From a bacterium (GTDB taxonomy: Bacteria > Patescibacteriota > Dojkabacteria > B142 > OLB20), in NCBI GenBank assembly GCA_021463645.1, contig JAJTYI010000004.1, forward strand, positions 174,277 to 238,276: a stretch of DNA of 64,000 nucleotides, given 5' to 3'. Position numbers and translations under genes: made by a program. How positions within the stretch are numbered: the stretch's first letter is position 1; each line of letters starts with the position of its first letter. Of the stretch, positions 28,654 to 61,033 are shown piece after piece. Under the pieces are notes generated by a model that saw only the letters and a program-made list of their open reading frames with translations, made no database searches and was not told where the DNA came from.

Positions 28654-30018
28654 TCAAATTCCCAAAGGGTATCTTTTACATAAAATGCTCACTTCCTTTG
28701 CAACTCTCTTTACATCCTTGTGATTTGCCACTTTAGTATTAAATTCCGTAAAATCCATATCCTGCCAATCTTTTACTACTTCCATAACTTCATTCATCCA
28801 TTTTGCGATTTGTTTCATTTCTGGTTCCCTCATACCACGAGTGGTAATCCAAGGTGTACCTACTCTCAATGCGGATGGATCTGCAGGTGGACGTTTTTCT
28901 TGAGGCATGGTGTTCATATTGGCAATTATTCCAGCATAATCTAATGCTCTCGCATACTTCTTACCAAAAAGTCCTTTGTTACTTAGGTCAATAAGCACTA
29001 GATGTTTGTCAGTCCCCCCTGTAATTATTTCAAAACCATACTGTTCAAGTTCTTTTGCCAAAACTTGTGCATTTTTCACAACTTGTTTTGCATATTTTTT
29101 GAATTCAGGAGTTAATGCTTCTTTAAGTCCCACCGCAATTCCAGCAATACTATGGTTGTGTGGTCCACCTTGAAGTCCAGGGAAAATTGCTCTGTTGATT
29201 TTCTTCATCAGATCGGCTTTACCTAAAATTATTGCTCCTCTGTTGCATCGAAGAGTTTTGTGAGTAGTCATGGTAACTACGTCAGCGTAACCTACAGGTG
29301 TGTTCATAACTCCTGCGCCTATTAAACCAGCTTCGTGAGCAATATCAGCAAGATAATAAGCTCCTACGGAGTGGGCAATTTCGGACATTCTTTTATAGTC
29401 AATATCTCTAGGATACGCAGTTCCACCTGTGATGATCATTTTTGGTTTTTCTTTTTTAGCAATTTTCTCAATTTCTTTGTAATCTAAGAGTTTTGTCTTT
29501 GGGTCGGTTTTGTACTGTACTGCTTCATAGAATTTCGAAGTAACGTTCACCTTGCGTTTCCCACCTGCATAAAACATAACATTTGGGACAAATTCTGCTG
29601 AATCGCTCTTTGGATTATATGACCATCCATGCGATAAATGACCCCCATCTGGAAGATACATTCCCATAATCTTGTCACCAGGTTTTAAAAGTCCAATATA
29701 AACTGATAGATTTGCAGGGCTTCCGGATAATGCTTGAACATTAACTTCCCAGTCTTTGGGCAATTTAAAGAACTTCTTTGCACGCTCAATTGCTAACAGC
29801 TCTAATTTATCAATGTGATAGTTACCTTCGTAATATCTTGCATTTGGATAACCCTCCGAATATTTATTCATAAAAACTGATCCAACTGCTTCACGAACTG
29901 CTTTTGAAGTGAAATTCTCGGATGGAATCATTGATAATTTCTCTTGTTGTTTTTTTTCTTCTGCCTTCAATATTTCATATACATCTTTATCTGCGGATTT
30001 GAGGTTTTTCTGTGACAT
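28654..30018 (-). CDS. glyA: Serine hydroxymethyltransferase
   Basis: 454 aa. SENFTS, YSEGYP and VTMTTHKTLR (PLP-lysine motif). Confidence 0.95.
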   Translation of the reverse strand: MSQKNLKSADKDVYEILKAEEKKQQEKLSMIPSENFTSKAVREAVGSVFMNKYSEGYPNARYYEGNYHIDKLELLAIERAKKFFKLPKDWEVNVQALSGSPANLSVYIGLLKPGDKIMGMYLPDGGHLSHGWSYNPKSDSAEFVPNVMFYAGGKRKVNVTSKFYEAVQYKTDPKTKLLDYKEIEKIAKKEKPKMIITGGTAYPRDIDYKRMSEIAHSVGAYYLADIAHEAGLIGAGVMNTPVGYADVVTMTTHKTLRCNRGAIILGKADLMKKINRAIFPGLQGGPHNHSIAGIAVGLKEALTPEFKKYAKQVVKNAQVLAKELEQYGFEIITGGTDKHLVLIDLSNKGLFGKKYARALDYAGIIANMNTMPQEKRPPADPSALRVGTPWITTRGMREPEMKQIAKWMNEVMEVVKDWQDMDFTEFNTKVANHKDVKRVAKEVSILCKRYPLGI

Positions 30019-40046: not shown

Positions 40047-40742
40047 TCAGTATCTTTCAGATTCGAGTGATAATTTACCGTTATCAATATGCAAATAGAA
40101 CGAAAGGCCAAAATTTATAAAACCAACGTTAATGTATTTCTTCTCAGGCATAAATGCTGGTGAATGAGTATGGGCTGCAACTAATATTGTTTCATCAGGT
40201 AGGTTTTTTGCATAGTTTATATGAGGATTGTTGAGTTTTTTGAATAATTGAGCGTATTTACTTTCTCCCATAAGGAAAAGTAAAGATTTCTGAAGAAAAA
40301 TGTAAAATCTGTAAGACTGATTTAATTTGTTGAAGTTATTAACCAAACGATTAAATTTGATATAAGTTTCGTTTGTAATTGAGTCGTTTGCAATCAAATG
40401 TCCGTGAGTGATTAGTAAATCTGCACCTTCCTCTTTGTAGTGATATTCGTTATGAGCCTCGTCACAGAATTGAAAAATTCTGTCATCACACCATTCTTTC
40501 CTGTCATGATTTCCATAGATAAATATACATTTCTTTGATTTCATCAAAGGAAACAACCCAGTCCACTTAGATTTGAATACATCATCAAGCGACAAGCTGT
40601 AATAACTCCATAAATCCCCATTAATAATCAACTTATCACATCTGGAAATGAGATTTTCTAGGTAAGCATAACGTTTTTTGTGAAATACACCGGTTATGTG
40701 AGTGTCTGAAATTACAATGGTTTTAAGTTTTTTATCGTTCAT
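40047..40742 (-). CDS. Calcineurin-like metallophosphoesterase
   Basis: 231 aa. VISDTH, GDLW, GNHD, THGH and AAHTH motifs. Confidence 0.85.
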   Translation of the reverse strand: MNDKKLKTIVISDTHITGVFHKKRYAYLENLISRCDKLIINGDLWSYYSLSLDDVFKSKWTGLFPLMKSKKCIFIYGNHDRKEWCDDRIFQFCDEAHNEYHYKEEGADLLITHGHLIANDSITNETYIKFNRLVNNFNKLNQSYRFYIFLQKSLLFLMGESKYAQLFKKLNNPHINYAKNLPDETILVAAHTHSPAFMPEKKYINVGFINFGLSFYLHIDNGKLSLESERY

Positions 40743-41125
40743 ATTAATTCTTTAAGTAAGGGTTCTATCAAATTTGGAATTTCATCAGGTTCATTGTATT
40801 TGATTACATGGGGAGACATCGTATTAAAATATGCAGGAGGATTATAGGTTTGATTATGAATGAAAATTATAGGTATATTGTATGCATCTGCCCAACCGAT
40901 TTCAATTCCTGCGCCAGTTGAGGGGTAACTGATTTCGGCAATAAAAACTTTACTGTCATGTATCTCTTTTTTTGAATCTGGATGATAATCTCTATTGTCG
41001 GGAGGGAGGATAAATCCGTACATATCCCATAATTTGGAATTTTTTATGGGTAGGTAGAGATCGTTAACGAAATCATAACCAGACGAATGTGCTACATAGA
41101 TTTTGGGTTTCATAGTATAATCCAA
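40739..41125 (-). CDS. Nucleoside 2-deoxyribosyltransferase-fold protein (DNPH1/Rcl-like)
   Basis: 128 aa. SKVFIAEISYPSTGAGIEIGWADAYNIPIIFI matches the catalytic-Glu block of the NDT/DNPH1 family. Paralogue of 58770-59180. Confidence 0.72.
   Translation of the reverse strand: MDYTMKPKIYVAHSSGYDFVNDLYLPIKNSKLWDMYGFILPPDNRDYHPDSKKEIHDSKVFIAEISYPSTGAGIEIGWADAYNIPIIFIHNQTYNPPAYFNTMSPHVIKYNEPDEIPNLIEPLLKELI
41116..41121 (+). promoter_or_regulatory. Candidate -10 element (TATAAT)
   Basis: Perfect hexamer 27 nt upstream of the ATG at 41149. Confidence 0.3.
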
Positions 41126-41148
41126 ACATTTTAATAACCTATTGTATT

Positions 41149-41604
41149 ATGTCTTTTTATGAAATTCCAACAAATAGTAGAATGTGGCAAGTAATTGTCA
41201 ACTCTGCTAAAAATGATGCTTTGACTGCATTATATATGAGGGGAAAGATAAAAGAAGTAGAGTTATATAGAAAGCTCTGGGTTTCAGAGATGCCAGTTTG
41301 CGATGCCATTGTGGGTGGGATGTATAGTTATGGATTAGTACCTGATGGGTATCAAGTTGTAGAAACCAGAGTAAAAACAGGATTTTCATCAACATATCAT
41401 GCTTTTCTATTTAATGATTCAAGTGGTGAAATTATTGATCCAACTGCTGCACAATTCTTCAATCCAAATTTTAATTCTCCTGGTTCTGCCGTATATAGGA
41501 TGCAAAGCAAGAACCCAAATGGAGTAATTGTGCGAGCTGATTTGGGTTTAGGTATACTCGTCACCTGCATTAACGATGTGAGAGGGGTGAGGTATCTCAT
41601 TTAG
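41149..41604 (+). CDS. Hypothetical protein, possible transglutaminase-like Cys-His-Asp peptidase fold
   Basis: 151 aa. The spacing of PVCDAIVGG ... YHAFLFNDSSGEIIDPTA resembles the C...HAW.E...W..DPT core of transglutaminase-like enzymes. Weak evidence. Confidence 0.45.
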   Translation: MSFYEIPTNSRMWQVIVNSAKNDALTALYMRGKIKEVELYRKLWVSEMPVCDAIVGGMYSYGLVPDGYQVVETRVKTGFSSTYHAFLFNDSSGEIIDPTAAQFFNPNFNSPGSAVYRMQSKNPNGVIVRADLGLGILVTCINDVRGVRYLI

Positions 41605-41728
41605 TAGTAACTTCACAGGTTTGTTGCGGTTTGCGATATTCCTTTTGGTGTTAGACATACTGATCTGCGTATACTTGTCTCTGTGGAATCAGATTTTTGT
41701 TTCTCACCAAGTCGGAAAAGAATTATTT

Positions 41729-42358
41729 TCATAACTTTTTATCGTAGTGAAAAAATTTTATTCCTGCATTTTCAGCTGCGACTTTGTCCGACCTTAATGA
41801 ATCTCCTACCATTAAAATTTTTCCTTTATCAGGATTATCAAATTTCTCATTGATAATCTCGAAACCAGATACATCTGGCTTTGGATATTCAACATTATCA
41901 AGAGTGGCAATTATTTCGAATTTTTCTTTTACCCCAGATTCTTTAAGCAGATAATCTATTGTTTGATAGTTATTATTTGACCATATAGCATGTTTAAGCT
42001 CTGTATTTGATGATTTAATCAAATTAATAACTTCGTTGTTTGGCTTGGCATATTCTAATGCGCTTAATTCACGTTCTTTGAATAATTCAATTACTTTTTG
42101 AATTGAGGATTTACCGTATTTTCTGGAGTATAAATCAATTTCGGTATAGGGAAATAATTGATATATAAACTCATCCTTGTCTAGGATTAACTCTGGATCA
42201 ACGTCGTTGAAAACTGAGTACAGTCTTCCTAAAAATTCATATGAAGTTTCTCCTTTCGTCCAGTCTAGTTTATATATGACTAAATCGAAATCCCAGATAA
42301 TGAATTCTATGTTGTTTTTCTCGATATACTTTTCAAGTTTTTGTTCAGTATTTGTCAT
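41729..42358 (-). CDS. HAD superfamily hydrolase (phosphatase/nucleotidase-like)
   Basis: 209 aa. IWDFDLVIY (DxD), S/T motif II and VGDSLRSD (motif IV). Confidence 0.82.
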   Translation of the reverse strand: MTNTEQKLEKYIEKNNIEFIIWDFDLVIYKLDWTKGETSYEFLGRLYSVFNDVDPELILDKDEFIYQLFPYTEIDLYSRKYGKSSIQKVIELFKERELSALEYAKPNNEVINLIKSSNTELKHAIWSNNNYQTIDYLLKESGVKEKFEIIATLDNVEYPKPDVSGFEIINEKFDNPDKGKILMVGDSLRSDKVAAENAGIKFFHYDKKL

Positions 42359-42366
42359 ATTATTTT

Positions 42367-42831
42367 TTAGTTACTAACTCCTGAGAAAAATATTTGTCCA
42401 ATCTTCTGGCCGATCATTAACTTAATTGGGAACTTGCTTGCATTATAAATCTCGCAGGTAATCACTGAGTCGGTCAATGGGTCGACAAGTACAGAAGAGA
42501 TATTAGTGAATAAACCGATTTGGGCAAGTGAAGGTTTTCCGTCAAAGATTGCCATTGTTTCTGAATTACAGTAAATCTTTTCTTCTGTTTTTCCAATTAT
42601 AAACTCACCAGGAGATAAAGTATAAGATTTATTTTTAACTTTAATAGGAGTTAACTCTTTTTCTTTTGGTTTTCCTCCGTTGAAGTATTTTCCTTTCGGT
42701 TTAACCTGGAATAATAAAGATCCCAAATGCATTTCGTATGAAACTGACCCGAGAAATTCTCCTTTAAATGGGGTTATTCCTATTATTTCGTCTTTGATAT
42801 ATTTGATTATTTTTTTATCTGAGAAGAACAT
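42367..42831 (-). CDS. dcd: dCTP deaminase/dUTPase superfamily protein
   Basis: 154 aa. SYEMHLG, LSPGEFIIGKTEE, GKPSLAQIGLF, VDPLTDSVITCEIYN and GQKIGQIFF follow the dCTP deaminase pattern, with some divergent positions. Confidence 0.75.
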   Translation of the reverse strand: MFFSDKKIIKYIKDEIIGITPFKGEFLGSVSYEMHLGSLLFQVKPKGKYFNGGKPKEKELTPIKVKNKSYTLSPGEFIIGKTEEKIYCNSETMAIFDGKPSLAQIGLFTNISSVLVDPLTDSVITCEIYNASKFPIKLMIGQKIGQIFFSGVSN

Positions 42832-43630: not shown

Positions 43631-46600
43631 ATGAAGCTCACTCTTAACAGGCTTAGATTTTTGGTATCACTAGGTTGGATATTCCTTATTGGAATTTTTT
43701 CTGTTGTAGGAACTGATCGTGTTGGGAGTGTACTTTCTGCTACCTCTCCATGGACACAAACAGAATGGTCTGGAGGACAAACAGATGACCTGGCGATTGG
43801 AACGGTTACCACATATAAGCAGATGGAGAATTTAGTAACTACATCGGGGAATTTGACACTGGCGTTAAAGTCTCCTTGGATGAATGAGGATTGGGGTTAC
43901 CGAAAAAAGCTTGTAATTGACAACACAACCGCAAATTTAGGCATTGCTTCTGAACAGCATCTGGATTTTCCAGTATTAGTAACTTTAAACACCGATAATT
44001 TCGATTATTCTAAAGCGAATGAAGATGGGAGCGACATAAGGTTTACTGATAGCGATGCATTAACCCTTCTTGATTATCAAATTGAGACTTGGGATATCTC
44101 TGGAGATTCTTTTATTTGGGTTAAGATTCCTCAAATTGATTTAGACTCAGATACTGACAATTTCTATTTATATTATGGAAATGCCTCAGCTATAGATGCG
44201 CAGAATCCTAGCGGAGTTTGGAGCAATTCATTTGAAGGTGTTTGGTTGTTAAATGACCCAAATGATACAACTTTGGTTTTAGATAGTGCTGGTAATCCGA
44301 CTTCAGAGAATGGTACAGCGCTTGCTGGAATAACTAATGCCTCGAAGATTAAATCCGGAATAGGTGGTGCGTTACAATTTGGATCTATAACCACAGATTA
44401 TATAACTCTGGGTATGCCAGCAAATCTTGATTTCACCCCAAATGCACAAGAATTTACAATTGATGCATGGGTCAAGTTTCCAGTCAATGCATCAGGGACT
44501 TTTTTTAGCAAAGGATCGAACACAGCGGCTAATATACAGTACGAGATGTATATTGGAACCAATAGACTTTATAGTCGAGTTGGAGGTGTAGCAAGAGATT
44601 CCACAAAGATAATTGGAGATGGAGAATGGCATCATATAGTTCTTCGTAATTACAATTCATCTGGATTGAAAATTTTTCAATATGTAGATGGATTGCAGGG
44701 AGGTACGCCTATTGCATCTGGGGCAGGAGTAATAACTGATAGAGATGTGATAATAGGAGGAAGAAGAAGTTCTACTAATGCAAACATTACATCAAGTTTA
44801 TCAGCAGGAGTAGAAATGGCAATGGTTAGGGCATCTAGTGTTGCACGTACTCCAGCATGGATTGCTGCCACCTTCAAATCTGAAAGTAACAGTTTTTTTG
44901 AATTTGAGTCAGAAGAAATGAAATACGAGACAAACGGATCTGTTTTATCAAATATCTTAGATGCAGAAGTGTTGCAAGATTGGGGAGTACTAAATTATAC
45001 AAACACTGGATCATCAAGCTTAGAAGTGAAGGTGAGAAGTGGAAATGAACCAGATTTATCTGACTCGGAACAGAGTTGGAGTGAGTGTTCTACAATTTCG
45101 TCTGGATCTACATTGGGAAGTGGAGGATGTGTTACAAATAAAACAAGATATATTCAATACAAAGTTGAATTCGTTGCAACTGATGCACAGACGCCTATTT
45201 TGGAAGATATTTCTTTAGCTTTTACACTAGCTGATATTGTTCGGCCTCCTACAAATGCAACTAACATTGAGATAGCTAATTTTTCTAGTGGAGATTGGAT
45301 TAATTCGTCTCCCACAATAACTTGGGATCCAGGAGTCGACAATGATGGAGGGAGCGGAATTTTAGGTTATTGTGTTTCGGTTGATGAGTCAGAACCAGAT
45401 TCAACTCATTCACTTGATCCAGAAGCAAATGCAGGAATTCTTCAGGGTTTGGATGATGGAGTTGTATCTTCAGCTTGCCCATATATTGTTGAAGGTGAGG
45501 AATTCAACTTGTCATCAATAAATGGATTAAATTTAACTTCTGGAAAGCAATATTATTTCTCGATAAAAGCTATCGATCAAAGTGATAACATTAACAATAC
45601 TGGTGCTTTCCAAGACTTACTATCATTCAAGTTCGACAATACACCACCAACACCACCCAGCTATGTTTCAATGCCTACAAACTTTCTATCATCAAAGAGT
45701 GTTACTGTGAGTTGGCCTTCAACTGGACCTGGTAGCGCAGAAGATGTTCATTCAGGGATTGCAGGTTTACAGTATAAAATCGGAACAGATGGAACATGGT
45801 ATGGGGATTTGCATACTGGCGTAGAAGACATAAACGACATACTAGTTAATGACGGATCATATACAACAAGCCCCGATTATGATTATTCTCAATTAATTGA
45901 AGGTACTAATTTCTTCTACATCAGAGCTGTTGACAATTTAGGAAATGTAACTTCAGATCAAGATGTAACGACTGGTTTAATCAAGATTAACACTTCTGCA
46001 CCATCAAAAGTTCTAAATCTATCAGTAAATAATTCAAATAATACTGAAAATAGTTATTCTTTTGATTGGGATCAGCCCGCCACCTTCACGGGTCAAGCTA
46101 GTGGTATTAGCTATTGTTACACAATTAATACTATCCCAGATGAGAACTCCTGTACTTTTACAGAACCAGGTGTTACAGAACTTCCTTCAGATGCGTATGC
46201 AACACAACCTGGGGTGAATACACTTTATGTTGTAGCAAAAGATGAAGCGGGAAATATTAACTATGCAACTTATAGTGAAACAGGCGCAAGTATAACTTTT
46301 ACATATTCAGGTAGTGCACCTGGTATACCTACAAATACTGACATATCTGATATTTCAATAAAGTCTACGGAGAATTGGAGACTTGTAATTTCTTGGAATA
46401 GCCCAACTAATATAGGTGCTGGTGTCTCCTATTACAATATTTATCGTAAGGTGGGTGAAGCGTCTTGTCTATCCAATTTTAGTTCTTTCAGTAAAGTAGG
46501 CTCAAGTAACAGTACTTCGTATATTGATCCCGATCTTCAACCAGTTCTTTACAGTTACTGTATAAAAGCATGTGATAGTGCCAATAATTGTTCTGCAAGT

Positions 46601-47872
46601 TCAGGAACTGCAAGTCGTGTTCCTACTGGTAAATTCACGGAAGCTGCATTATTATCTAGTGAAGTCGAGGTGTTGTCCGTAACAACTAGAAAAGCACTAA
46701 TTAGCTGGGTGACAGATAGGGTTAGTGATTCGAAAATTGAATATGGACTAGAGTCCGGAAAATATTTTGAAGAGGAAGTGAGTAATAGTGCCCAAGTGAT
46801 AAGCCACAATATTACTCTTAACAATTTGACACCAGGAACAACATATTTTTATAAAGTTAAATGGACTGATGTAGATGGGAATACTGGTGTAAGTGATGAA
46901 AAGTCTTTTGCCACTTTACCTCCTCCAGTAGTGTCAAATGTTTCGGCAAGTGCTATTACTACGAATTCAGCATTAATAAACTTCAGAGTGAGAAATGCAA
47001 CAAGAGTGTCCCTCGTATACGGGACAACAGAAACTTACGGAGGGAGTGAAGAAATTGCTACTTCGACTGAAGAATCTGAATATTCGATTCGATTGGGTAA
47101 TTTACAAGATGGAGTTACCTATAATTATAAATTCTTCCTGCAGGATATTGACGGAAATAATAATGACTCTGTTGTAAATTTCCAATTTGCGACTTTGCCA
47201 CTACCACAAATTAATAATCTAAGATTCGAAGAAGTGAAGAATACATCTCAACCAACAGTTAATGTATTTTGGGAAACCAATGTATTAACACTTGGATTTG
47301 TAGAATATGTAAATCAGGACAACCCAAGTGAGGATAGAACCCAAGCCGAAAGTGAATATTCCAATGAGCACGAATTAACCCTAACCGGATTAACTGCGAA
47401 TACAAATTACACTTTAATAGTTAGTGCCAGAGATTCTCTTGGGAATGTAGTTCAATCGGGGGAGTTTACATTCACTACTGCAAGTGACTCTAGGCCACCT
47501 GCAATATCAAATGTAAAAATTGAAACACGTCTTTCCGATGCCTCAGTAGAATTCGGTGCAGATGTATCGGCACAATTGATACTTACCTGGGACACAGATG
47601 AACTTGCTACAAGTCAAGTTCAGTTCGCACAAGGAACATCTGGAGACTATACTCAAAAAACTGCACTTGATGAAAATTTGACCTTTAATCACTTAGTGGT
47701 TATAAATAACTTAAGCCCGAGTAGCGTTTATAAATTACAAGTTTTGTCAAAAGATGATGTAGGTAATGAGGCAAGGGGTAAGAATATTGTCACGATTACT
47801 GCACAATCAAAAGAAAATCCTTTGGAAGTCATTTTTGGAAGGTTGTCGGAGGTATTTGGTTTCTTAAGATAG
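43631..47872 (+). CDS. Giant secreted/anchored surface protein: DUF2341-like, LamG/ConA-like lectin, multiple FN3/Ig-like repeats
   Basis: 1413 aa. N-terminal signal anchor, SPWTQTEWSGG, DUF2341 pattern (WGYRKK..DFPVLV..DGSDIRF..IWVKIP..YLYYGN), a LamG-like block, and FN3-like repeats (ISWVTDRVSDSKIEYG...). Paralogue of the next gene. Confidence 0.85.
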   Translation: MKLTLNRLRFLVSLGWIFLIGIFSVVGTDRVGSVLSATSPWTQTEWSGGQTDDLAIGTVTTYKQMENLVTTSGNLTLALKSPWMNEDWGYRKKLVIDNTTANLGIASEQHLDFPVLVTLNTDNFDYSKANEDGSDIRFTDSDALTLLDYQIETWDISGDSFIWVKIPQIDLDSDTDNFYLYYGNASAIDAQNPSGVWSNSFEGVWLLNDPNDTTLVLDSAGNPTSENGTALAGITNASKIKSGIGGALQFGSITTDYITLGMPANLDFTPNAQEFTIDAWVKFPVNASGTFFSKGSNTAANIQYEMYIGTNRLYSRVGGVARDSTKIIGDGEWHHIVLRNYNSSGLKIFQYVDGLQGGTPIASGAGVITDRDVIIGGRRSSTNANITSSLSAGVEMAMVRASSVARTPAWIAATFKSESNSFFEFESEEMKYETNGSVLSNILDAEVLQDWGVLNYTNTGSSSLEVKVRSGNEPDLSDSEQSWSECSTISSGSTLGSGGCVTNKTRYIQYKVEFVATDAQTPILEDISLAFTLADIVRPPTNATNIEIANFSSGDWINSSPTITWDPGVDNDGGSGILGYCVSVDESEPDSTHSLDPEANAGILQGLDDGVVSSACPYIVEGEEFNLSSINGLNLTSGKQYYFSIKAIDQSDNINNTGAFQDLLSFKFDNTPPTPPSYVSMPTNFLSSKSVTVSWPSTGPGSAEDVHSGIAGLQYKIGTDGTWYGDLHTGVEDINDILVNDGSYTTSPDYDYSQLIEGTNFFYIRAVDNLGNVTSDQDVTTGLIKINTSAPSKVLNLSVNNSNNTENSYSFDWDQPATFTGQASGISYCYTINTIPDENSCTFTEPGVTELPSDAYATQPGVNTLYVVAKDEAGNINYATYSETGASITFTYSGSAPGIPTNTDISDISIKSTENWRLVISWNSPTNIGAGVSYYNIYRKVGEASCLSNFSSFSKVGSSNSTSYIDPDLQPVLYSYCIKACDSANNCSASSGTASRVPTGKFTEAALLSSEVEVLSVTTRKALISWVTDRVSDSKIEYGLESGKYFEEEVSNSAQVISHNITLNNLTPGTTYFYKVKWTDVDGNTGVSDEKSFATLPPPVVSNVSASAITTNSALINFRVRNATRVSLVYGTTETYGGSEEIATSTEESEYSIRLGNLQDGVTYNYKFFLQDIDGNNNDSVVNFQFATLPLPQINNLRFEEVKNTSQPTVNVFWETNVLTLGFVEYVNQDNPSEDRTQAESEYSNEHELTLTGLTANTNYTLIVSARDSLGNVVQSGEFTFTTASDSRPPAISNVKIETRLSDASVEFGADVSAQLILTWDTDELATSQVQFAQGTSGDYTQKTALDENLTFNHLVVINNLSPSSVYKLQVLSKDDVGNEARGKNIVTITAQSKENPLEVIFGRLSEVFGFLR

Positions 47873-47876
47873 TTCG

Positions 47877-50800
47877 ATGCATGCAAAGAAAATTCTTGCG
47901 ATAAAAACTCTTAGTTTCTCAGTGTTATTCGTAGCTGTAATTTTTCTTGGAACACGAATCAAAGGTAATTTAAATGAGTTCGGTAATGTACTTTCAGCCA
48001 ACTCCCCTTGGATTCAGACAGATTGGAGTGGGGGTGTATATAACCAAATTGTAACGGGTAATGTAAATACTTATATATCCGAAACCGCTATTGATGCTGC
48101 TCTGAATGGTGAAATTAAATTACTTGAAAAAGAGGAGTGGGCTGTTGATTATAATGGATGGCAATATCGTAAGAAAATAAATTTTAATAACACTGATGCA
48201 TTTCTAAATGTCGAAAGTCAAGACTTGATTGATTTTCCGGTTCTTATTGTTCTTCAGCAAGGTGTAAATTTTGATTATACTAAATCTAAAGATAATGGTC
48301 AGGACATACGATTTGCTGATTCAAATGGAAATGTATTAAATTATGAAATAGAAAGATGGGAAGAAAATGGATCCTCCTATATTTGGGTAAAAGTCCCTCA
48401 GATTGATCAAAATTCAAATTCAAGTTATATATATGTCTACTACGGAAATTCTAGTGCATCAGATAGTCAAAACATTACTGGAGTTTGGAAGGATGATTAT
48501 AAAGGAGTATGGCATTTTAAGGAAGTTGTACATAATTCATGCACTGGTAATGTAAATGATACTTGTGATTCTACAATCAACTCAATTAACGGTTCATGGA
48601 CTGGCACTTTCCTTTCTGCAAATGGAAAAATTGGAAAAGCAGGTCAGTTTACTAATAATGCTACTAATTTCCTGGATTTCGGAGATAATGCAGTCTTTGA
48701 TTTTGGGAATAGCGACTTTACTATAGAGACTTGGTCGAATAGAAATATTGTCAATAGTGATTGGAATTCATCTGTGATTACAAAATGGAATACTGGAGCA
48801 TCACCATCAACAAATGAATGGTCAATTTCTTGGGGTTCTGGAGGTTCAAGATCTACTGTCCCTGGTTTTACGATGGTATCTGGATCTACTAATTATAATG
48901 CTAATTCAACCGAAAGTTTACTTACACAAACATGGAATCATATCGTAGCAGTCAGAGAAAACACGAATATACTTTTATATGTTAACGGAGTATTGCATGC
49001 AACAACTCCTGTTGGGTCTGTTTCTGTAAATAATGTACCCGGAAGAACACTTAAAGTTGCTAAAATTGATGCAGGGAGTTATGGATTTGATGGTTTGATA
49101 GATGAAATAAAGATTTCTAGAACTGCAAAGTCCCGATCGTGGATAGCGGCAACTTATAAGTCGGAAAATAATCAATTTGCCTCCTTTTCTCAAGAAGATC
49201 TCAAATATAATGATAGTGGTTATCTAGTTTCAAACATTCTTGATTCAGGTGTGTCAATGGACTGGGGATTACTAAACTACACAAGTTCAGGAACAGGTAC
49301 GGTAACAGTTAAGGTACGAACAGACAACTCGTCTGATATGAGTGGAGCAACAGGCTGGGGAACGTGTGGTGCAGTTACAAGCGGAACTGACACTTCTGCA
49401 AACAACTGTGTAGACGATGGAGATAGATATATCCAATATCAAGTAACTCTTCAACCAAGTGGAGCATCAACTCCAGTATTTGAAGATATTAGCATAGCTT
49501 TTGTTCCATCAGATCAACTAGCACCAGAAGTAAACGCAACAGATGTTGAAATCTCAGGACTTGCAAACAGCGGAGATTGGTATGCAACAGAACCAACAAT
49601 CACATGGACAGCAGGAGCAGATGACTTAGGGGGTAATGGGATTTTAGGATATTGTATAGCAATAGATGAAGCAGAACCAAATGCCAGTAACGGACTAAAT
49701 CCAGCGATGACCTCAGGAATACTAACAGGTAAGAATGACGGAGTAGCACAAGAGTATTGCCCCTACATAGTAGTGGGAGAAGAATTAGAGGTAAGTGCAG
49801 TAATAGGACTGGATTTGATTGCAGGTAAACAATACTACATATCAATAAAAGCAGTAGATATCGCAGGAAATATCTACACAGGAACAGATGAAACATGGAA
49901 AGATCTACTATCATTCAAGTATGACAACGAAGAACCAACAGCACCATTCTACATATCATTACCCGCAAACTTTCTATCATCAAAAGACGTAGTAGTAACA
50001 TGGCCGGTAGGAGTAGGAGGAGCAGATGACTTACACTCAGGACTAGCAGGACTACAGTACAGGATAGGAGACACAGGAACATGGTATGGAGACCTACATA
50101 CAGGAACAGAAGATATCAATGACCTACTAATAAACGACGGTTCGTATGTAACAGACGAGACATACGATTACCCAGAACTAGTAGAAGGAAACAACCTAAT
50201 CTACTTCAGGGCAGTAGATAATCTAGGGAATGTAACAGCACCAGAGAACTATGTAAAAGGAATATTGAAGCTAAATACAGTGGCACCATCTCCAGTAAGA
50301 AATCTCTCCGTAAACCCAATAAACGGAACAGAAAACAATTACACATTTACATGGGATGTCCCAGGAACATATACAGGATCAAGTTCAGGGATAAGATACT
50401 GTTACACAGTAAACGCAATACCGTCAGTATCAAATTGCATATACACAGATCCGGGAGTAACAACCATAGGACCAGATGCATATGCAACACAACCAGGAGA
50501 GAATACAATGTACGTAGTAGCAAAAGATGAAGCAGGAAACATCAACTATGCAACATACTCGGAACCAGGATCAAGTGTAACGTATACATACTCAGGAACA
50601 GCACCAGGAATGGCACAGAACTTGGATGTAGCAGATATCTCGGTAAAAGCAACACTGAATTGGAGACTGGTACTATCGTGGGATCAACCAACAAACATAG
50701 GAGCAGGGATATCCTACTACAATATTTATCGTAGTGAGACAGCAACTTCATGTGTATCTTCACAGAGTGCATTCACAAAAGTAGGGTCAAGTACAAGTAC

Positions 50801-52151
50801 ATCATACATAGATCCAAACCTACAACAAAAAACATACAATTATTGTATAAAGGCATGTGATAGTGCAAACAACTGTTCAGCGAGTTCAGGGACGGTAGGG
50901 AGATTACCAACAGGGAAGTTCACGGAACCAGCAGAGTTGCTATCTCCACCGGAGGTAGTGAGTTTTACAACAAGGAAGGCAGTGATTAATTGGATAACAG
51001 ACAGAGTATCAGACTCTAGTATTCAGTATGGTCTTGAAAGTGGTGTCTACTTCGAAGCAGAAGTAGCAAACAGTAATCAACTAGCTGTACATACAATTCC
51101 TCTCAATAATCTCGAACCAGGAACTACATACTATTACAGAGCAAAATGGACTGATGTAGATGGAAACACAGGTGTAAGTGAGGAAAAAACTTTCTCTACT
51201 CTTCCGGCCCCAACAATCTCAAACACAATAACAACTAACGTCACTACAAATTCGGCGGTTGTCACATTTTTAGTAAGAAATTCAGTAGAAGCAACTATTT
51301 TATACGGATTATCCGATAATTATGGTGGCTCACAAACGATACCAACCTCTACAATAGAGTCGACTTATTCATTGCAACTTACAAATCTTCAAGAAGGTAC
51401 ATTGTACAACTACAAACTGAATCTATTGGATGTCGATGGGAATAACTATACTTATTTTGAGAATCATCAATTTACAACATTACCATATCCGCGAGTACAA
51501 GATATCCAAGTACAAGAAGTAAAAAACAGCGCTCAACCAACAGTCGATGTAAATTGGATATCAAATGTACCAATAAGTACCCAAGTTAATTACTATCCTC
51601 TAGATGACACTAATCAGAAAAGGGATAAGCTCGATGTAGAATTAAAAACAGAACACAAAATATCGATTTCAGAATTACAACCAAACAGAAGATACGGTAT
51701 GATAATAACTGGAAGAGATGCAATAGGAAATCAAGCTGTATCTGATGAATATCAATTCACAACAGCAGCAGACTCAAGACCACCAGAAATAAGAAACATA
51801 AAGGTAGAGACAAGAGTAAGTAATACAAATACAGGAGAACAAGCACAAACACAGTTGATAGTGACATGGGATACGGATGAAGAAGCAACAAGTCAGATAG
51901 AATATGGAGAAGGTTCAGGAGGGACATATACACAGAGGAGTTTGGTAGATGACAATCTAACGTTCAATCATTTAGTAATAGTAAACAATCTACGACCAAG
52001 TAGTGTGTATCACTTCAGAGTGGTATCGGCAGATAGTGCAGGGAATGAATCAAGTGGAAAGAATGTAGTAACGATAACAGCACAAGTAAGTGAAAACCCA
52101 TTGGACATAATTATCTCTAGATTAACTGAAGTGTTTGGTTTTATCCGCTAG
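47877..52151 (+). CDS. Giant surface protein, paralogue of 43631-47872 (DUF2341-like, LamG-like, FN3 repeats)
   Basis: 1424 aa with the same architecture and the same C-terminal tail (ENPLDIIISRLTEVFGFIR). Starts 4 nt after the previous stop. Confidence 0.85.
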   Translation: MHAKKILAIKTLSFSVLFVAVIFLGTRIKGNLNEFGNVLSANSPWIQTDWSGGVYNQIVTGNVNTYISETAIDAALNGEIKLLEKEEWAVDYNGWQYRKKINFNNTDAFLNVESQDLIDFPVLIVLQQGVNFDYTKSKDNGQDIRFADSNGNVLNYEIERWEENGSSYIWVKVPQIDQNSNSSYIYVYYGNSSASDSQNITGVWKDDYKGVWHFKEVVHNSCTGNVNDTCDSTINSINGSWTGTFLSANGKIGKAGQFTNNATNFLDFGDNAVFDFGNSDFTIETWSNRNIVNSDWNSSVITKWNTGASPSTNEWSISWGSGGSRSTVPGFTMVSGSTNYNANSTESLLTQTWNHIVAVRENTNILLYVNGVLHATTPVGSVSVNNVPGRTLKVAKIDAGSYGFDGLIDEIKISRTAKSRSWIAATYKSENNQFASFSQEDLKYNDSGYLVSNILDSGVSMDWGLLNYTSSGTGTVTVKVRTDNSSDMSGATGWGTCGAVTSGTDTSANNCVDDGDRYIQYQVTLQPSGASTPVFEDISIAFVPSDQLAPEVNATDVEISGLANSGDWYATEPTITWTAGADDLGGNGILGYCIAIDEAEPNASNGLNPAMTSGILTGKNDGVAQEYCPYIVVGEELEVSAVIGLDLIAGKQYYISIKAVDIAGNIYTGTDETWKDLLSFKYDNEEPTAPFYISLPANFLSSKDVVVTWPVGVGGADDLHSGLAGLQYRIGDTGTWYGDLHTGTEDINDLLINDGSYVTDETYDYPELVEGNNLIYFRAVDNLGNVTAPENYVKGILKLNTVAPSPVRNLSVNPINGTENNYTFTWDVPGTYTGSSSGIRYCYTVNAIPSVSNCIYTDPGVTTIGPDAYATQPGENTMYVVAKDEAGNINYATYSEPGSSVTYTYSGTAPGMAQNLDVADISVKATLNWRLVLSWDQPTNIGAGISYYNIYRSETATSCVSSQSAFTKVGSSTSTSYIDPNLQQKTYNYCIKACDSANNCSASSGTVGRLPTGKFTEPAELLSPPEVVSFTTRKAVINWITDRVSDSSIQYGLESGVYFEAEVANSNQLAVHTIPLNNLEPGTTYYYRAKWTDVDGNTGVSEEKTFSTLPAPTISNTITTNVTTNSAVVTFLVRNSVEATILYGLSDNYGGSQTIPTSTIESTYSLQLTNLQEGTLYNYKLNLLDVDGNNYTYFENHQFTTLPYPRVQDIQVQEVKNSAQPTVDVNWISNVPISTQVNYYPLDDTNQKRDKLDVELKTEHKISISELQPNRRYGMIITGRDAIGNQAVSDEYQFTTAADSRPPEIRNIKVETRVSNTNTGEQAQTQLIVTWDTDEEATSQIEYGEGSGGTYTQRSLVDDNLTFNHLVIVNNLRPSSVYHFRVVSADSAGNESSGKNVVTITAQVSENPLDIIISRLTEVFGFIR

Positions 52152-57376: not shown

Positions 57377-58777
57377 ATGATTTTAACAATTTTTGGTGCT
57401 ACAGGAGATCTTGCAAGAAGGATGTTATTTCCGTCACTCTATCATCTTCATAAACAAGGCCGACTTCCTAATGACCTGGAAATAGTCGGATTTGCTAGGC
57501 GTGAACTATCCAATGAACAATTTTGTGAGTATCTATCAGATGAATTCAAAAACTTATATGGAAATGTTTTCAATTTAGAAAGTTGGCAAAAATTTTGTGA
57601 AAAAATCACCTATTTTCAAGGCGACTTAGCGAGTGAAGCTGACTTCCAAAGACTTGGGAAAAAATTAGCAGAAGCGGATACAGATCTTCAGTCATGTACC
57701 GATAAGATCTTCTATTTAGCAATCAGTCCGGATTTATATCCGCAAACATTTTCAGGAATCAGAAAATCACAACTTGAAAGCATCTGTGAACACACAAAAC
57801 ACGTTCGAGTTGTAGTTGAAAAACCATTTGGAAAAAACTTAAAATCTTATTATGAATTGAATAATAACTTAATAGATATTTTCGATGAGGAACAGATCTA
57901 TCGTATTGATCATTATTTAGGAAAAGAAACCGTAAAGAACATTTTGAATTTTAGAGCTGCAAATCCATTATTTTTTAACGACTGGAACAAAAACACGATA
58001 GATCGAATAGATGTGAAAGTGATGGAATCCCTAGGAGTTGGAACTCGAGCAGAATATTATGACGAGTATGGACAAATGAGGGATTTGGTTCAAAGTCATG
58101 GCTTGCAGTTATTATCTCTTGTGATGTCAGAATTACCTGACGAACTCACAGCAGACAAAATACGTAACTCGAAAACTGAGATCCTGCAGAGTTTGTATGT
58201 GGAGAGTATGGAAAACGATGTTGTTCGGGGACAGTATGGCAGTGGAATTATAGATGGCTACCCAGTTAAATCTTACAAGGAAGAGCATGAGAAGTTGGTA
58301 GAGTCAAATACCGAGACTTATGTACATATAAAAGCACATTCAAGGCTTGAAACCTGGGAGGGTGTTGAGATTAATTTGATTAGTGGCAAAAGAATGCAAA
58401 GTAAAGAGACTTCTATTACATTACATTTTAAGAGCCAAGAGCGAGTAAAAGGCATCCCTTCGAAAAATAAACTAATATTCCAACTTCAACCAAGTGAGGG
58501 TATTACACTTGACTTACAGGTGAAAAAACCGGGTTTAAATGAGCTCGAGGTTGTCCCAATGGTTTTCAAATATCAAGACAATTTTAGAGTACTACTTCCA
58601 GATGCTTATGAATCTCTGCTTTTAGATATATTTAAAGGCAATAAATCGAGTTTTATTAGTAATGAAGAATTAGAAGCATCATGGAAATTTATTGATCCAA
58701 TATTAGAGCTATGGAATACTGAAAATTCTCGACCGGTGATTTATCCTGCGGGAAGTAAGTATTTGCAGATTAATTAA
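57377..58777 (+). CDS. zwf: Glucose-6-phosphate 1-dehydrogenase
   Basis: 466 aa. IFGATGDLARR, EKPFG and RIDHYLGKE motifs. Confidence 0.95.
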   Translation: MILTIFGATGDLARRMLFPSLYHLHKQGRLPNDLEIVGFARRELSNEQFCEYLSDEFKNLYGNVFNLESWQKFCEKITYFQGDLASEADFQRLGKKLAEADTDLQSCTDKIFYLAISPDLYPQTFSGIRKSQLESICEHTKHVRVVVEKPFGKNLKSYYELNNNLIDIFDEEQIYRIDHYLGKETVKNILNFRAANPLFFNDWNKNTIDRIDVKVMESLGVGTRAEYYDEYGQMRDLVQSHGLQLLSLVMSELPDELTADKIRNSKTEILQSLYVESMENDVVRGQYGSGIIDGYPVKSYKEEHEKLVESNTETYVHIKAHSRLETWEGVEINLISGKRMQSKETSITLHFKSQERVKGIPSKNKLIFQLQPSEGITLDLQVKKPGLNELEVVPMVFKYQDNFRVLLPDAYESLLLDIFKGNKSSFISNEELEASWKFIDPILELWNTENSRPVIYPAGSKYLQIN

Positions 58778-59180
58778 ATTGGAATTCTTTAAAATAGGAT
58801 TCCAACATATTCTCGAGATCAGGGAAATCTTTGTACCACATAAACTGAAATCTATCATAGTCAATCCCTCGTAGCATTCTAGATACAATTTGACCTTCTA
58901 ACGCTATCGCAAGTACTGGTTTCCCGACGTGTACTGCATGCATAACTTCCATACCTACTCCATGAGAAGGATAACTAACTTCCGCAATAACTATATCTGC
59001 TGATTCGACTGCTTTGATATCCATATTGTAAAGAGTTCGCATATCATCGACTGGGCCTGTACCGAACCACGGAATGATTTCTGCATATTTCGGTAGAACC
59101 TCTTTATTAATTTTAATTAAGTGGGGATTCTCACTCTCCATAATTAAATTTACGGCGTAATAGACTTTAGGTTTCTTCAT
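58770..59180 (-). CDS. NDT-fold protein, DNPH1/Rcl/MilB-like putative (deoxy)nucleotide N-glycosidase
   Basis: 136 aa. ADIVIAEVSYPSHGVGMEVMHAVHVGKPVLAI matches the DNPH1-type catalytic-Glu block. Last gene of the ThyA-like operon. Confidence 0.72.
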   Translation of the reverse strand: MKKPKVYYAVNLIMESENPHLIKINKEVLPKYAEIIPWFGTGPVDDMRTLYNMDIKAVESADIVIAEVSYPSHGVGMEVMHAVHVGKPVLAIALEGQIVSRMLRGIDYDRFQFMWYKDFPDLENMLESYFKEFQFN

Positions 59181-59697
59181 TTTTAATTAATTGATAAAAA
59201 AATTCAAAATCCCCATTTTTACATGTGGGGAGTGCTCGATTGAAGTATTTCTCTGAATCTTCAAGCAGATAGATATTATTGATTCCTGCTTTTAACATTT
59301 TTTCTGAACATGGTTTGCAACACCACCACTCTCCAAATAAATAGGCATCTGCTCCTTTGATATCTATTCCCTTTTCTGTGGCGAGATTAATTGCTTTTGG
59401 TTCTGCATGGTTTTCATAATCACAACCTGGACACAAATGATAGTCTTGCCCAGATGGAGTGCCTAATTTCACTCTTTCACAGCCATTTTTTATATGATAG
59501 TCTGATCCATCTGCAGCTTTTACTAGTACTTTTCCATTTCTGACAAAAACAACTCCTACTGGTGACTTAGGTTCATAGCCAGTGTCATATGCATCTGTCT
59601 TAGCGATATCCATCGCAACTTGCATAAACTTGTTAGTAATTGGAACATACTGATATGGTTTGCCTGGTATTTCGTAGGGATAATTGATTTTTTTCAT
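59167..59697 (-). CDS. CDA-fold zinc deaminase (dCMP deaminase/ComEB-like)
   Basis: 176 aa. NHAEPKAI (HAE) and WWCCKPCSEKM (PCxxC), plus an extra Cys/His cluster (CERV..HLCPGC) suggesting a second zinc site. Confidence 0.8.
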   Translation of the reverse strand: MKKINYPYEIPGKPYQYVPITNKFMQVAMDIAKTDAYDTGYEPKSPVGVVFVRNGKVLVKAADGSDYHIKNGCERVKLGTPSGQDYHLCPGCDYENHAEPKAINLATEKGIDIKGADAYLFGEWWCCKPCSEKMLKAGINNIYLLEDSEKYFNRALPTCKNGDFEFFYQLIKNEET

Positions 59698-59698
59698 A

Positions 59699-59935
59699 TT
59701 AGTTTTCTGATGGGGTAGTATCTAGTGGCTCCTTATGGTAACCGCCTGTAACAGCAGTTCCATCAGTTCCTACGCGACCATCCATTGTTTCCAATCTATT
59801 ATCATCACCATCGTTTGGTGTTAAACCAAATTTTTCTGCTGCATGTCTTCTATCCCCTTCATTATGGTTGTAATTCCTTACGAAAAAAGTTTTAACTAAC
59901 ATAATTAATTTCTTAATATCTAAATTCCTAAACAT
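59699..59935 (-). CDS. Small acidic Gly/Asp-rich hypothetical protein (paralogue of the next ORF)
   Basis: 78 aa with AEKFGLTPND core. The true start may be the ATG at 59902. Confidence 0.5.
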   Translation of the reverse strand: MFRNLDIKKLIMLVKTFFVRNYNHNEGDRRHAAEKFGLTPNDGDDNRLETMDGRVGTDGTAVTGGYHKEPLDTTPSEN

Positions 59936-60208
59936 CTTAATTTTTTGAGTGTCTTATTGGTTCTTCATCTATATCTCCAGACTGAAAAACCCCATCGTGT
60001 CCAGCATACTTTCCTTCATCATGAGGACCAATTTCATATTCGTAGTTTTCTTTTTCATTGGGTGGTTCGCCGAAGTGTTTTCCTGCGTCTGGGGGTTCTG
60101 TTCCATCAGCAGACCACCAATCCTGTCTGCCCTCAATATCATTGTAAAATCTAAATTGTGCTCTTATCAAAATTGTTTAATATCTAAATTTCTAAATATC
60201 TAAATTCC
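59915..60208 (-). promoter_or_regulatory. Three copies of the 14-nt motif AATATCTAAATT(C/T)C (59915-59928, 60179-60192, 60195-60208)
   Basis: Read on the minus strand as G(G/A)AATTTAGATATT. The copies lie 8-12 nt upstream of the likely starts of both small ORFs. Confidence 0.35.
59937..60170 (-). CDS. Small acidic Gly/Asp/Pro-rich hypothetical protein
   Basis: 77 aa with AGKHFGEPPNE core. TTG start; no in-frame ATG near the 5' end. Confidence 0.5.
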   Translation of the reverse strand: MIRAQFRFYNDIEGRQDWWSADGTEPPDAGKHFGEPPNEKENYEYEIGPHDEGKYAGHDGVFQSGDIDEEPIRHSKN

Positions 60209-61033
60209 CTAATGAGCTCGTATCCCCTTAATCGCTTTCAATGGTTTGTATTGTGATTTCAAATCTTCCACAATTTCGTCAATGAGTGTAACATCTCCAG
60301 ATTCTGCTCTTTTCAGGGAATTCTTTGGCAAATGAAGTTGAATTTCGGAATGATCTGATGTTCTTTTAATTAATTCTTCGGCGGCTTCGTATTGGTCGGA
60401 GTAGAAATGTGCATTGCTAATGCTATGTGAATACATCCCAACTCGAACTTTTAGTTCTTGTGCAATTATATGTTGAAGTAATGCAAATCCTGCAACGTCA
60501 TGGGGAAGTCCTAGAAACACATCATTTGAGCGGATGATATTATGCATGCATAGTTTTCCACCGATAATGTTGAGAGTGAAAGCAAATAAACAAGGAACAT
60601 TTTTTCGTGGTTTACCAGTCAGTCCATCAGAGGTCGGATCCCATGCTATTACTACACCATGTCTGGAAGTAGGTTTCTCTTTTAGATGTTTAATTAACTC
60701 GGAAAGCTGATCTCTCCCAAAATGTTTCCTCCATCTATAGCCATACGAAGTCACTTTTCCATCTTCCTCTATGAAATCATCCCAGATTTTGGTGTATGGT
60801 CGTAACCATTCTGGGTCATTTTCGCCAAGCAAAAACCATAACTGCTCAGCCACGAATATTTTTAAGGGTAGTTTGCGAAGAGTGAGTAGGGGAAAACCTT
60901 TAGATAAATCAATGTTGAAGTGAGCTCCTGGAATAGCTTTACAAACGTATCCTGAACGAGAATTCTTGTCTTCGATACCTTCCTCTAGGATTTGTTTTAC
61001 AAGTTTTTGGTAGGTCTTGTCGAAATTGGTCAT
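60209..61033 (-). CDS. Thymidylate synthase (ThyA) family protein, atypical: Asp at the Asn177-equivalent position (possible cytosine-nucleotide methylase/hydroxymethylase)
   Basis: 274 aa. Aligns by eye along E. coli ThyA: NSRSG (R21), IWDD, YGYRWR, SRHGVVIAWD, VPC148LFAF, IIRSND, LGLPHD179, NAHFY. Confidence 0.85.
   Translation of the reverse strand: MTNFDKTYQKLVKQILEEGIEDKNSRSGYVCKAIPGAHFNIDLSKGFPLLTLRKLPLKIFVAEQLWFLLGENDPEWLRPYTKIWDDFIEEDGKVTSYGYRWRKHFGRDQLSELIKHLKEKPTSRHGVVIAWDPTSDGLTGKPRKNVPCLFAFTLNIIGGKLCMHNIIRSNDVFLGLPHDVAGFALLQHIIAQELKVRVGMYSHSISNAHFYSDQYEAAEELIKRTSDHSEIQLHLPKNSLKRAESGDVTLIDEIVEDLKSQYKPLKAIKGIRAH

Follow-up and report, generated by a model that had tools for sequence, protein, structure and literature searches.

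A 64,000-nt stretch of a Dojkabacteria genome (positions 174,277 to 238,276 of contig JAJTYI010000004.1, assembly GCA_021463645.1; referred to here as the window) contains a minus-strand operon headed by a homologue of the thymidylate synthase ThyA, in which Asp occupies the position of an Asn that reads uracil in the canonical enzyme. The open reading frame (ORF) listing gives five genes from 61033 to 58770, spaced by 38, 1 and 1 nt and with the final pair overlapping by 14 nt, which matches exactly the layout described in an initial annotation of this DNA. The genes, and the two codons on which the argument turns, are as follows.

60209..61033, minus strand: ThyA-family enzyme, 274 aa (Pfam, NCBIfam, alignments, tree and AlphaFold2 (AF2) model)
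60590..60592, minus strand: codon of catalytic Cys148, equivalent to E. coli Cys146 (alignments)
60497..60499, minus strand: GAC codon of Asp179, equivalent to E. coli ThyA Asn177 (alignments)
59937..60170, minus strand: small ORF sORF1, 77 aa, TTG start (ORF listing; called as a gene in assembly L010)
59699..59935, minus strand: small ORF sORF2, 78 aa, a paralogue of sORF1 (ORF listing and comparison with relatives)
59167..59697, minus strand: CDA-fold zinc deaminase, 176 aa (Pfam; HAE ... CxxC)
58770..59180, minus strand: DNPH1/Rcl-like NDT-fold protein, 136 aa (PDB sequence matches, AF2 and Foldseek)

The five-gene set was found again in further, independently assembled genomes of this species (L010-L012 and L013), of which L013 is the species-representative genome and encodes a ThyA 99% identical to the window enzyme. 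Relatives were collected by scanning one genome from each GTDB species for a motif, which yielded 447 stretches confirmed to encode a relative; the best 80 of these bear names of the candidate phyla radiation (CPR) type, bar a few generically labelled metagenome-assembled genomes. Residue and linkage counts given below refer to 84 Patescibacteria loci, with flanks of up to 10 kb per side.

The 274-aa protein matches Pfam PF00303 Thymidylat_synt (184.7 bits, E=2.4e-54), and its AF2 model (pLDDT 92) has the full-length thymidylate synthase (TS) fold including the C-terminal tail, with TM 0.8-0.86 to solved TSs. The canonical catalytic set (Cys146, Glu58, Tyr94, Arg126/166, Ser167, Asp169 and His207/Tyr209) is present throughout, Cys148, R168/S169/D171 and H209/Y211 of the window enzyme being kept in the alignment. 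The uracil-reading triad Asn177/Gln165/His147 is replaced by Asp179/Ile167/Leu149, and Phe is found at the position of E. coli Trp83. When phmmer aligns the protein to three solved TSs, Asp179 faces their Asn ('rsndvflglphdvagfall' vs 'rsadiflgvpfniasyall'), and it does so again when MAFFT is used with E. coli ThyA. The initial annotation had made this assignment by hand; three independent alignments uphold it, as alignment also does its placing of Leu, Ile and His (Leu149, Ile167 and His125) at His147, Gln165 and Arg127. A profile alignment, in which Asn at the specificity position would have spoken against the assignment, was run and gave Asp, and the claim stands.

Published residue diagnostics were then applied to the window enzyme. 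The positions that best set cytosine-modifying ThyA homologues apart are 177 and 147 (PMC8670742; PMC13326640), and N177D/N229D mutants shift preference to dCMP (as cited in PMC8670742 and PMC13326640). A residue at L143 that is bulky or non-acidic goes with a methyl product and Asp or Glu with a hydroxymethyl product, D169N being the mark of 5-hydroxy-dCMP synthases (PMC13326640), while deoxy and ribo specificity are distinguished by Ser167/Arg126 vs Ala/Lys (PMC5175136). At the L143 position the window enzyme has Asn145, where T4 gp42 has Asp in the same alignment; Asp171 is retained, unlike in 5-hydroxy-dCMP synthases of the RB69/DLP3 type; and Ser169 and Arg124 stand where MilA and BcmA have the ribo pair, Ala at Ser167 and Lys at Arg126. 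Its signature at positions 143, 147, 165, 169 and 177 is N-L-I-D-D, compared with N-P-(L/I)-D-D in the phages Xp12, Mallos and PA_LZ02 ('KNVPC' motif). By these diagnostics the sequence reads as that of a putative dCMP enzyme (Asp179) of the deoxy type (Ser169, Arg124), neither hydroxymethylating (Asn145) nor 5-hydroxylating (Asp171), and the protein is predicted to be a dCMP C5-methyltransferase that uses methylene-tetrahydrofolate (THF) and releases dihydrofolate (DHF). Several features point to methyl and not hydroxymethyl chemistry, namely the coupling to dihydrofolate reductase (DHFR) described below, Asn143 as in Xp12, the retained D169 and the full-length TS fold with its C-terminal tail; a deoxyribose substrate is indicated by the retained Ser167 and Arg126.

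The initial annotation had considered such a locus unusual for a cell. This was not borne out, since an Asp-type enzyme is encoded in every Patescibacteria locus that the scan picked up (447 stretches; 84/84 examined). All 84 loci have Asn143 and Asp177, with Pro (74) or Leu (10) at position 147 and Val, Ile or Leu at 165; E58, Y94, R126, C146, R166, S167, D169 and H207 are invariant, and position 209 is Tyr (80) or Trp (4). Asp is likewise found at the specificity position in 120/120 closest homologues from a collection of 5.8 billion proteins, the few with named organisms coming from Parcubacteria, Colwellbacteria, Paceibacterota, Uhrbacteria, Minisyncoccota and the 'Patescibacteria group'. 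When the top 150 cluster representatives were taken from an exhaustive HMMER search, 120 had Asp177, almost always together with Phe83 and a residue other than His at 147, and 25 had the canonical W-R-C-H-Q-R-D-N-H-Y pattern. Two natural fusions were seen among the Asp-type representatives, one to a CDA domain (CDA-ThyA, P0131) and one to a PRA-PH pyrophosphohydrolase domain (PRA-PH-ThyA, P0177).

Compared with 50,697 phage records, the enzyme matched best to Xanthomonas phages Xp12, Mallos and DoCa10, Pamexvirus PA_LZ02 and phiH2, and Achromobacter phages, with E 1e-44 to 3e-53 and 35-42% identity. The window enzyme and these phage enzymes have in common the blocks 'YGYRWR.HFGRDQ', 'AWDP..DG....KNVPC' and 'RS.D.F.GLP.D' as well as the indel pattern. 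A neighbour-joining tree built from 146 sequences, with T4 gp42 as the root, places the canonical Asn-type enzymes (L-H-Q-D-N) and the T4-like hydroxymethylases (D-T-M-D-D, with Asp at 143) in clades of their own, and a third large clade (N143-P147-hydrophobic165-D169-D177) contains the window enzyme, the other CPR sequences and the Xp12 group. The cytosine substrate proposed in the initial annotation fits both the published diagnostics and this position beside the Xp12 dCMP methylase.

Within 1.5 kb of the Asp-type gene lie a CDA-fold deaminase in 73/84 CPR loci, usually divergent and just upstream, and DHFR on the same strand in 71/84; a DCD-family gene is present within the same distance in 47/84, serine hydroxymethyltransferase (SHMT) in 28/84, Tmk in 23/84 and MazG in 9/84. 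The window operon is a Dojkabacteria-specific rearrangement of this CPR-wide thymidylate cluster. In L013, SurE, DHFR, a DCD-like gene and Tmk sit just past the position of the window's right edge, placing DHFR 4.3 kb from the ThyA-family gene, and SHMT, an accessory of the pathway that regenerates methylene-THF, is encoded in the window without linkage to that gene:

28654..30018, minus strand: SHMT (GlyA)

In this species and in L014, a Pif1/Dda-like helicase of superfamily 1B (61262-62548, plus strand; PHROG 325, E=6e-83) separates the ThyA-family gene from the SurE-DHFR-DCD-like-Tmk block. The relatives L005 and L015 lack it there, so that it was probably inserted recently.

The DCD-family gene bears directly on which nucleotide the cluster supplies. 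A 'dCTP deaminase' beside thyA suggests a supply of dUMP, and this interpretation was dropped because alignment to solved DCDs, and MAFFT as well, show Pro in place of the catalytic Glu138 in all loci compared (58/58); the linked protein cannot be taken as a source of dUTP or dUMP. The Glu-less proteins (L013:4480-5139 is an example, with 57 other CPR loci) score above the TIGR02274 cutoff and carry the motif 'IID.GY.G.L..P..NNT'. Judged by their residues, they are probably not dCTP deaminases by the known mechanism, dNTP diphosphatase being the more likely activity, and they appear to be a systematically mis-annotated family. Canonical Dut is also present in five of the 84 loci.

The 176-aa deaminase matches PF00383 dCMP_cyt_deam_1 (40.6 bits, cutoff 25) and has the zinc and catalytic motifs 'NHAEP' and 'CCKPC'. 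With 13 word-indexed homologues it had the look of a narrow orphan family, an idea that was dropped on finding 49% identity to the common (L004-type) CPR deaminase; both proteins have '(I/N)YPY..G...YVP', 'GSDYH..N.CERVK', 'NHAEP' and 'WWCC.PC'. It is only remotely related to the dCMP deaminases of Xp12, T4 and human (E at least 0.02 to the Xp12 type). Its predicted activity is the conversion of 5-methyl-dCMP (or dCMP) to dTMP (or dUMP). Selectivity of deaminases for 5-methylcytosine (5mC) is reported to be polyphyletic, with no sequence determinant found in that account.

Taken together, these findings suggest that the cluster may make thymidylate by the path dCMP to 5-methyl-dCMP to dTMP, a cellular version of the Xp12 route, and we give this reading an even chance of being correct. 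The Asp-type enzyme would methylate dCMP at C5 with methylene-THF, yielding 5-methyl-dCMP and DHF, the dCMP coming either from scavenged DNA or from dCTP by way of the linked MazG or the Glu-less DCD-like diphosphatase. DHFR would recycle the DHF and SHMT would regenerate methylene-THF. The co-transcribed CDA-fold deaminase would turn 5-methyl-dCMP into dTMP, which Tmk would phosphorylate, and thymidylate synthesis would then not pass through dUMP. The order of the genes, their active-site residues, the position in the tree and the statistics of linkage and fusion were observed directly, and the substrate and product named for every enzyme are predictions from them. Precedent comes from the Xp12 enzyme and five metagenomic relatives, which make 5mdCMP as detected by liquid chromatography-mass spectrometry; the in-cis deaminases of those enzymes are 5mC-selective and were proposed to supply dT nucleotides, bypassing dUMP methylation, and deaminase and ThyA genes co-localise in 70% of cytosine-modified viral contigs vs 6% of unmodified ones (bioRxiv 10.1101/2024.12.05.627091). 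The initial annotation offered three scenarios, of which methylation followed by deamination, reaching dTMP by another path, has the most support, both from the Xp12/mSCD logic and from the linkage to deaminase, DHFR, Tmk and SHMT.

The Asp-type enzyme might instead still be a TS that methylates dUMP, with the deaminase supplying dUMP, the DCD-like protein acting as a dUTPase, DHFR, SHMT and Tmk in their textbook roles and the DNPH1-like protein unrelated; this we consider possible, though rather unlikely. A number of observations count in its favour or against the 5-methyl-dCMP route. The TS fold and every catalytic residue bar the 177/165/147 triad are intact, and the 274-aa protein scores 147.5 against the NCBIfam thymidylate synthase model TIGR03284, above its cutoff of 108.35. 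The content of the cluster fits textbook dTMP synthesis, and the canonical route (dCMP/dUTP to dUMP to dTMP) explains it equally well. A protonated Asp, in a pocket made more hydrophobic by the non-polar residues at 147 and 165, could mimic Asn and read uracil. At 147 the window enzyme carries Leu in place of Pro, and at 127 His; the CPR clade and the validated Xp12 enzyme share only some 35% identity, and the neighbour-joining tree carries no support values. No deaminase is found nearby in 7/84 loci, of which 4 have adequate flanks, and a short DCD-like protein encoded elsewhere in the window (154 aa, 42367-42831, minus strand) keeps the Glu and is a possible source of dUTP. Neither ThyX nor a further ThyA-family ORF turned up in the 64-kb window or the 84 loci when phmmer was run with T. 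maritima ThyX and E. coli ThyA, a search that covers less than 10% of a genome and so is not conclusive; with no second TS gene seen nearby, this gene must supply dTMP somehow. Recent CPR work, in which CPR folA complements E. coli ΔfolA, takes thyA as canonical and treats thyA/folA as a canonical unit (PMC11974145).

On the other side, the mutants described above, in which Asp at this position brings a preference for dCMP, argue against a dUMP-methylating enzyme, and all characterised natural Asp-type members (T4 gp42, MilA, Xp12 and relatives) use a cytosine nucleotide. The CPR clade nests with the Xp12 methylases and not with the Asn-type TSs. Since the linked DCD homologue is without the deaminase Glu, and since the very tight linkage of deaminase and ThyA is typical of cytosine-modifying systems, a reading of the gene context as a plain canonical dUMP pathway is weakened. 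Were dUMP nevertheless the substrate, these would be the first natural thymidylate synthases to read uracil with Asp.

The last gene of the operon raises a further alternative to the 5-methyl-dCMP route. A sequence search of the PDB with the 136-aa protein hits rat Rcl/DNPH1 chains (E=4.7e-13), and the top-50 Foldseek PDB matches of its AF2 model (pLDDT 88) are all DNPH1/Rcl (TM 0.70-0.81). E78, in 'GVGMEV', faces the Glu of Rcl 'GVGYEL', which we take to be the catalytic E93 of Rcl, and is invariant in 19 homologues. The match to the DNPH1/Rcl catalytic-Glu block described in the initial annotation is thereby confirmed. The rest of the DNPH1 catalytic set is also kept (Y7, D54, S72, E78 and S100, vs Tyr13, Asp69, Ser87, E93 and Ser117 of Rcl). 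The N-terminal phosphate-binding loop is not conserved: the window subfamily has 'AVNLIMES' where DNPH1-type homologues in the same alignment have 'ACSITGGR', the loop of rat Rcl presumably being 'GSIRGG'. From these features the protein is predicted to be a 2'-deoxynucleoside 5'-phosphate N-glycosidase.

An NDT/DNPH1-like gene is present in 22/84 loci. It lies in one ORF with the deaminase in five (L021, L055, L061, L071 and L090; the frames of L055, L061 and L090 were inspected) and directly adjoins the deaminase in 10 further loci and in the window, and these shared ORFs and adjacencies across CPR loci indicate that the two proteins form a conserved functional pair. The single ORFs inspected are at L055:11168-12097, L061:11304-12284 and L090:11474-12400, and in the NDT domain of the last the catalytic Glu appears to be replaced. 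A different arrangement is seen in one Kerfeldbacteria locus, where a fusion of an amidohydrolase-superfamily domain with an NDT-like domain lies 720 nt downstream of the Asp-type gene (L092:9606-11360). The amidohydrolase domain best matches the families of 5'-deoxyadenosine, 8-oxoguanine and guanine deaminases, no CDA-fold deaminase lies nearby, and the domain seems to have taken the place of the deaminase partner without being homologous to it. In L005, a sister lineage, the slot after the deaminase holds, in place of the DNPH1-like gene, a 105-aa weakly MazG-like protein (L005:9634-9951; E=0.0026, under the Pfam cutoff).

An N-glycosidase beside an Asp-type ThyA homologue recalls the hydroxymethylation and free-base logic of MilA/MilB and BcmA/BcmB, or a path from hm-dCMP to hm-dUMP to free 5-hydroxymethyluracil (hmU), and one scenario of the initial annotation followed MilA/MilB. 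Asp177 is present, the NDT-fold N-glycosidase is in the operon and elsewhere shares an ORF with the deaminase, and in human DCTD and then DNPH1 act on 5hm-dCMP and 5hm-dUMP, the PDB naming DNPH1 '5-hydroxymethyl-dUMP N-hydrolase'. The residues and the context point away from it: the L143 position holds Asn and not the Asp/Glu of T4 gp42 and MilA, Ser167 and Arg126 (Ser169 and Arg124 in the window enzyme) are the deoxy and not the ribo signature, and the coupling to DHFR implies oxidation of THF and hence methyl transfer. In addition, the setting is a housekeeping one, with no methyltransferase, kinase or other secondary-metabolite gene nearby, and the NDT-like gene occurs in only the minority of loci counted above. 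The MilA/MilB scenario is not borne out, and hydroxymethylation with release of a free base is in our view quite improbable. Within the 5-methyl-dCMP route, the DNPH1-like protein would hydrolyse an unwanted deoxynucleotide (dUMP, hm-dUMP or surplus 5-methyl-dCMP) to its base and deoxyribose-5-phosphate; such removal is its most likely role, and it is the weakest link of the proposed pathway.

A third alternative is modification of DNA, in which 5-methyl-dCMP would be phosphorylated and incorporated as pool-derived 5mC, the deaminase diverting part of it to dT. The clade of the enzyme and the content of the operon match those of phages that fully replace C by 5mC. Against this, no promiscuous dNMP kinase of the T4 gp1 type and no dCTP-depleting system were identified; in the published experiments 5mdCMP entered the DNA of E. 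coli with such a kinase, T4 gp1, expressed alongside (bioRxiv 10.1101/2024.12.05.627091). The genome is moreover cellular and of ordinary composition, and the literature searched held no report of bulk 5mC in CPR DNA. We regard incorporation of this kind as very unlikely. Still a little less probable is the combined case, in which Patescibacteria make dTMP via 5-methyl-dCMP and let some or all of their 5-methyl-dC reach the replisome, giving genomic 5mC beyond methyltransferase motifs; if true, these would be the first cellular organisms with phage-style base substitution at the nucleotide level.

Between the ThyA-family and deaminase genes lie the two small ORFs. sORF1 encodes an acidic, Gly/Asp/Glu/Pro-rich, lineage-specific protein of 77 aa, and the true start of sORF2 may be an internal Met, giving 67 aa. 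Each is preceded by AGGAATTTAGATATT.AGAAATT within an A/T-rich leader of 23-24 nt, of which two copies are found:

60187..60210, minus strand: leader motif copy 1, AGGGAATTTAGATATTTAGAAATT, directly 3' of the ThyA stop codon
59907..59929, minus strand: leader motif copy 2, AGGAATTTAGATATTAAGAAATT, directly 3' of the sORF1 stop codon

Since the paralogues are each led by the motif, the whole unit (59699-60210, minus strand) has been duplicated in tandem. Relatives with 91-92% identical ThyA have one copy of the unit, interrupted by a stop in L005, and a relative with 82% identical ThyA has none. Between the window and L005 the small ORF has a dN of 0.27, close to the 0.20 of the deaminase, with synonymous sites saturated, suggesting a real but fast-evolving small acidic protein. 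No match to the small ORFs was found in Pfam, NCBIfam, PHROGs or PADLOC.

PADLOC also gave no defence-system match for any of the five operon proteins, and a defence-system reading of the operon was dropped; its helicase-model match is to the neighbouring Pif1/RecD-like helicase only. An Rfam scan of the window found three tRNAs and no other RNA element, and a scan of the operon for promoters and terminators gave counts lower than the shuffled expectation. Elsewhere in the window lie a second nucleotide-metabolism cluster, to which the Glu-keeping DCD-like gene belongs, and two adjoining giant ORFs:

40047..42831, minus strand: second nucleotide-metabolism cluster, comprising
40047..40742, minus strand: metallophosphoesterase
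40739..41125, minus strand: weak NDT-like ORF
41729..42358, minus strand: HAD hydrolase
42367..42831, minus strand: Glu-keeping DCD-like protein
43631..52151, plus strand: two adjoining ORFs of 1413 and 1424 aa

At the position corresponding to the giant ORFs, L005 has a 1380-aa ORF with DUF2341 and fn3 matches, past an ABC-transporter (792 aa) and an NMT1 protein (354 aa).

All cells are generally taken to make their thymidylate from dUMP, with either ThyA or ThyX. The phage pathway and the Asp-for-Asn rule were already known; what is new is a cellular, apparently superphylum-wide variant of the viral system, and no paper noting the CPR 'thyA' as Asp-type or as a member of the Xp12 clade was found in the literature searched. 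If the 5-methyl-dCMP route holds, an entire superphylum of bacteria would obtain its dTMP independently of dUMP, as only a few phages are known to do, and reconstructions of metabolism in which 'thyA present' is scored would need to be revised. The management of dUTP and of uracil in DNA, and the dependence on folate, would have to be rethought for CPR, models of folate exchange between CPR and host having assumed canonical ThyA and FolA. It would also point to gene flow between phages and CPR, and would offer biotechnology a large pool of natural dCMP methylases and possibly of 5mC-preferring deaminases and DNPH1-like glycosidases.

Several known systems invite comparison. With the canonical ThyA-FolA cycle the CPR cluster shares the fold, the catalytic Cys, Glu, Tyr and Arg, the C-terminal tail, the coupling to DHFR and SHMT and the end product dTMP, whereas Asn177/Gln165/His147 have become Asp/Ile/Leu, Trp83 Phe and Arg127 His in the window enzyme. 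The T4 system (gp56 dCTPase, gp42, cd and gp1) resembles it in the specificity Asp, in dCMP as the predicted substrate and in having a diphosphatase and a deaminase around the ThyA homologue; gp42 differs in its Asp at the L143 position, belongs to a separate clade, releases THF and not DHF, and has a product that enters DNA. MilA/MilB and BcmA/BcmB, from antibiotic and antivitamin synthesis, likewise pair an Asp-type ThyA homologue with an NDT-fold N-glycosidase, but the window enzyme has Ser/Arg and not Ala/Lys and no acidic residue at 143, and its context is one of DHFR and Tmk, with no tailoring genes. The human DCTD-DNPH1 axis (5hm-dCMP to 5hm-dUMP to hmU and deoxyribose-5-phosphate) is alike in that a deaminase of the dCMP family is followed by a DNPH1-fold N-hydrolase; unlike it, the window protein is without the DNPH1 phosphate loop, and the partner deaminase in L092 is of an unrelated amidohydrolase fold. 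The module of Xp12 and the Pamexviruses differs from that of CPR, which stands in a cellular, housekeeping locus, uses a CPR-specific deaminase subfamily, has Leu at 147 in the window enzyme and adds the DNPH1-like protein, the Glu-less DCD-like protein, Tmk and SHMT; replacement of C by 5mC is known for phage only. The two agree in the ThyA clade and its signature (N143, P147, a hydrophobic 165, D169 and D177) and in having deaminase and DHFR in cis, and the operon of Xp12, Mallos and PA_LZ02, made up of a pyrophosphohydrolase, the Asp-type ThyA homologue, a dCMP deaminase and DHFR, has the same composition as the CPR cluster.

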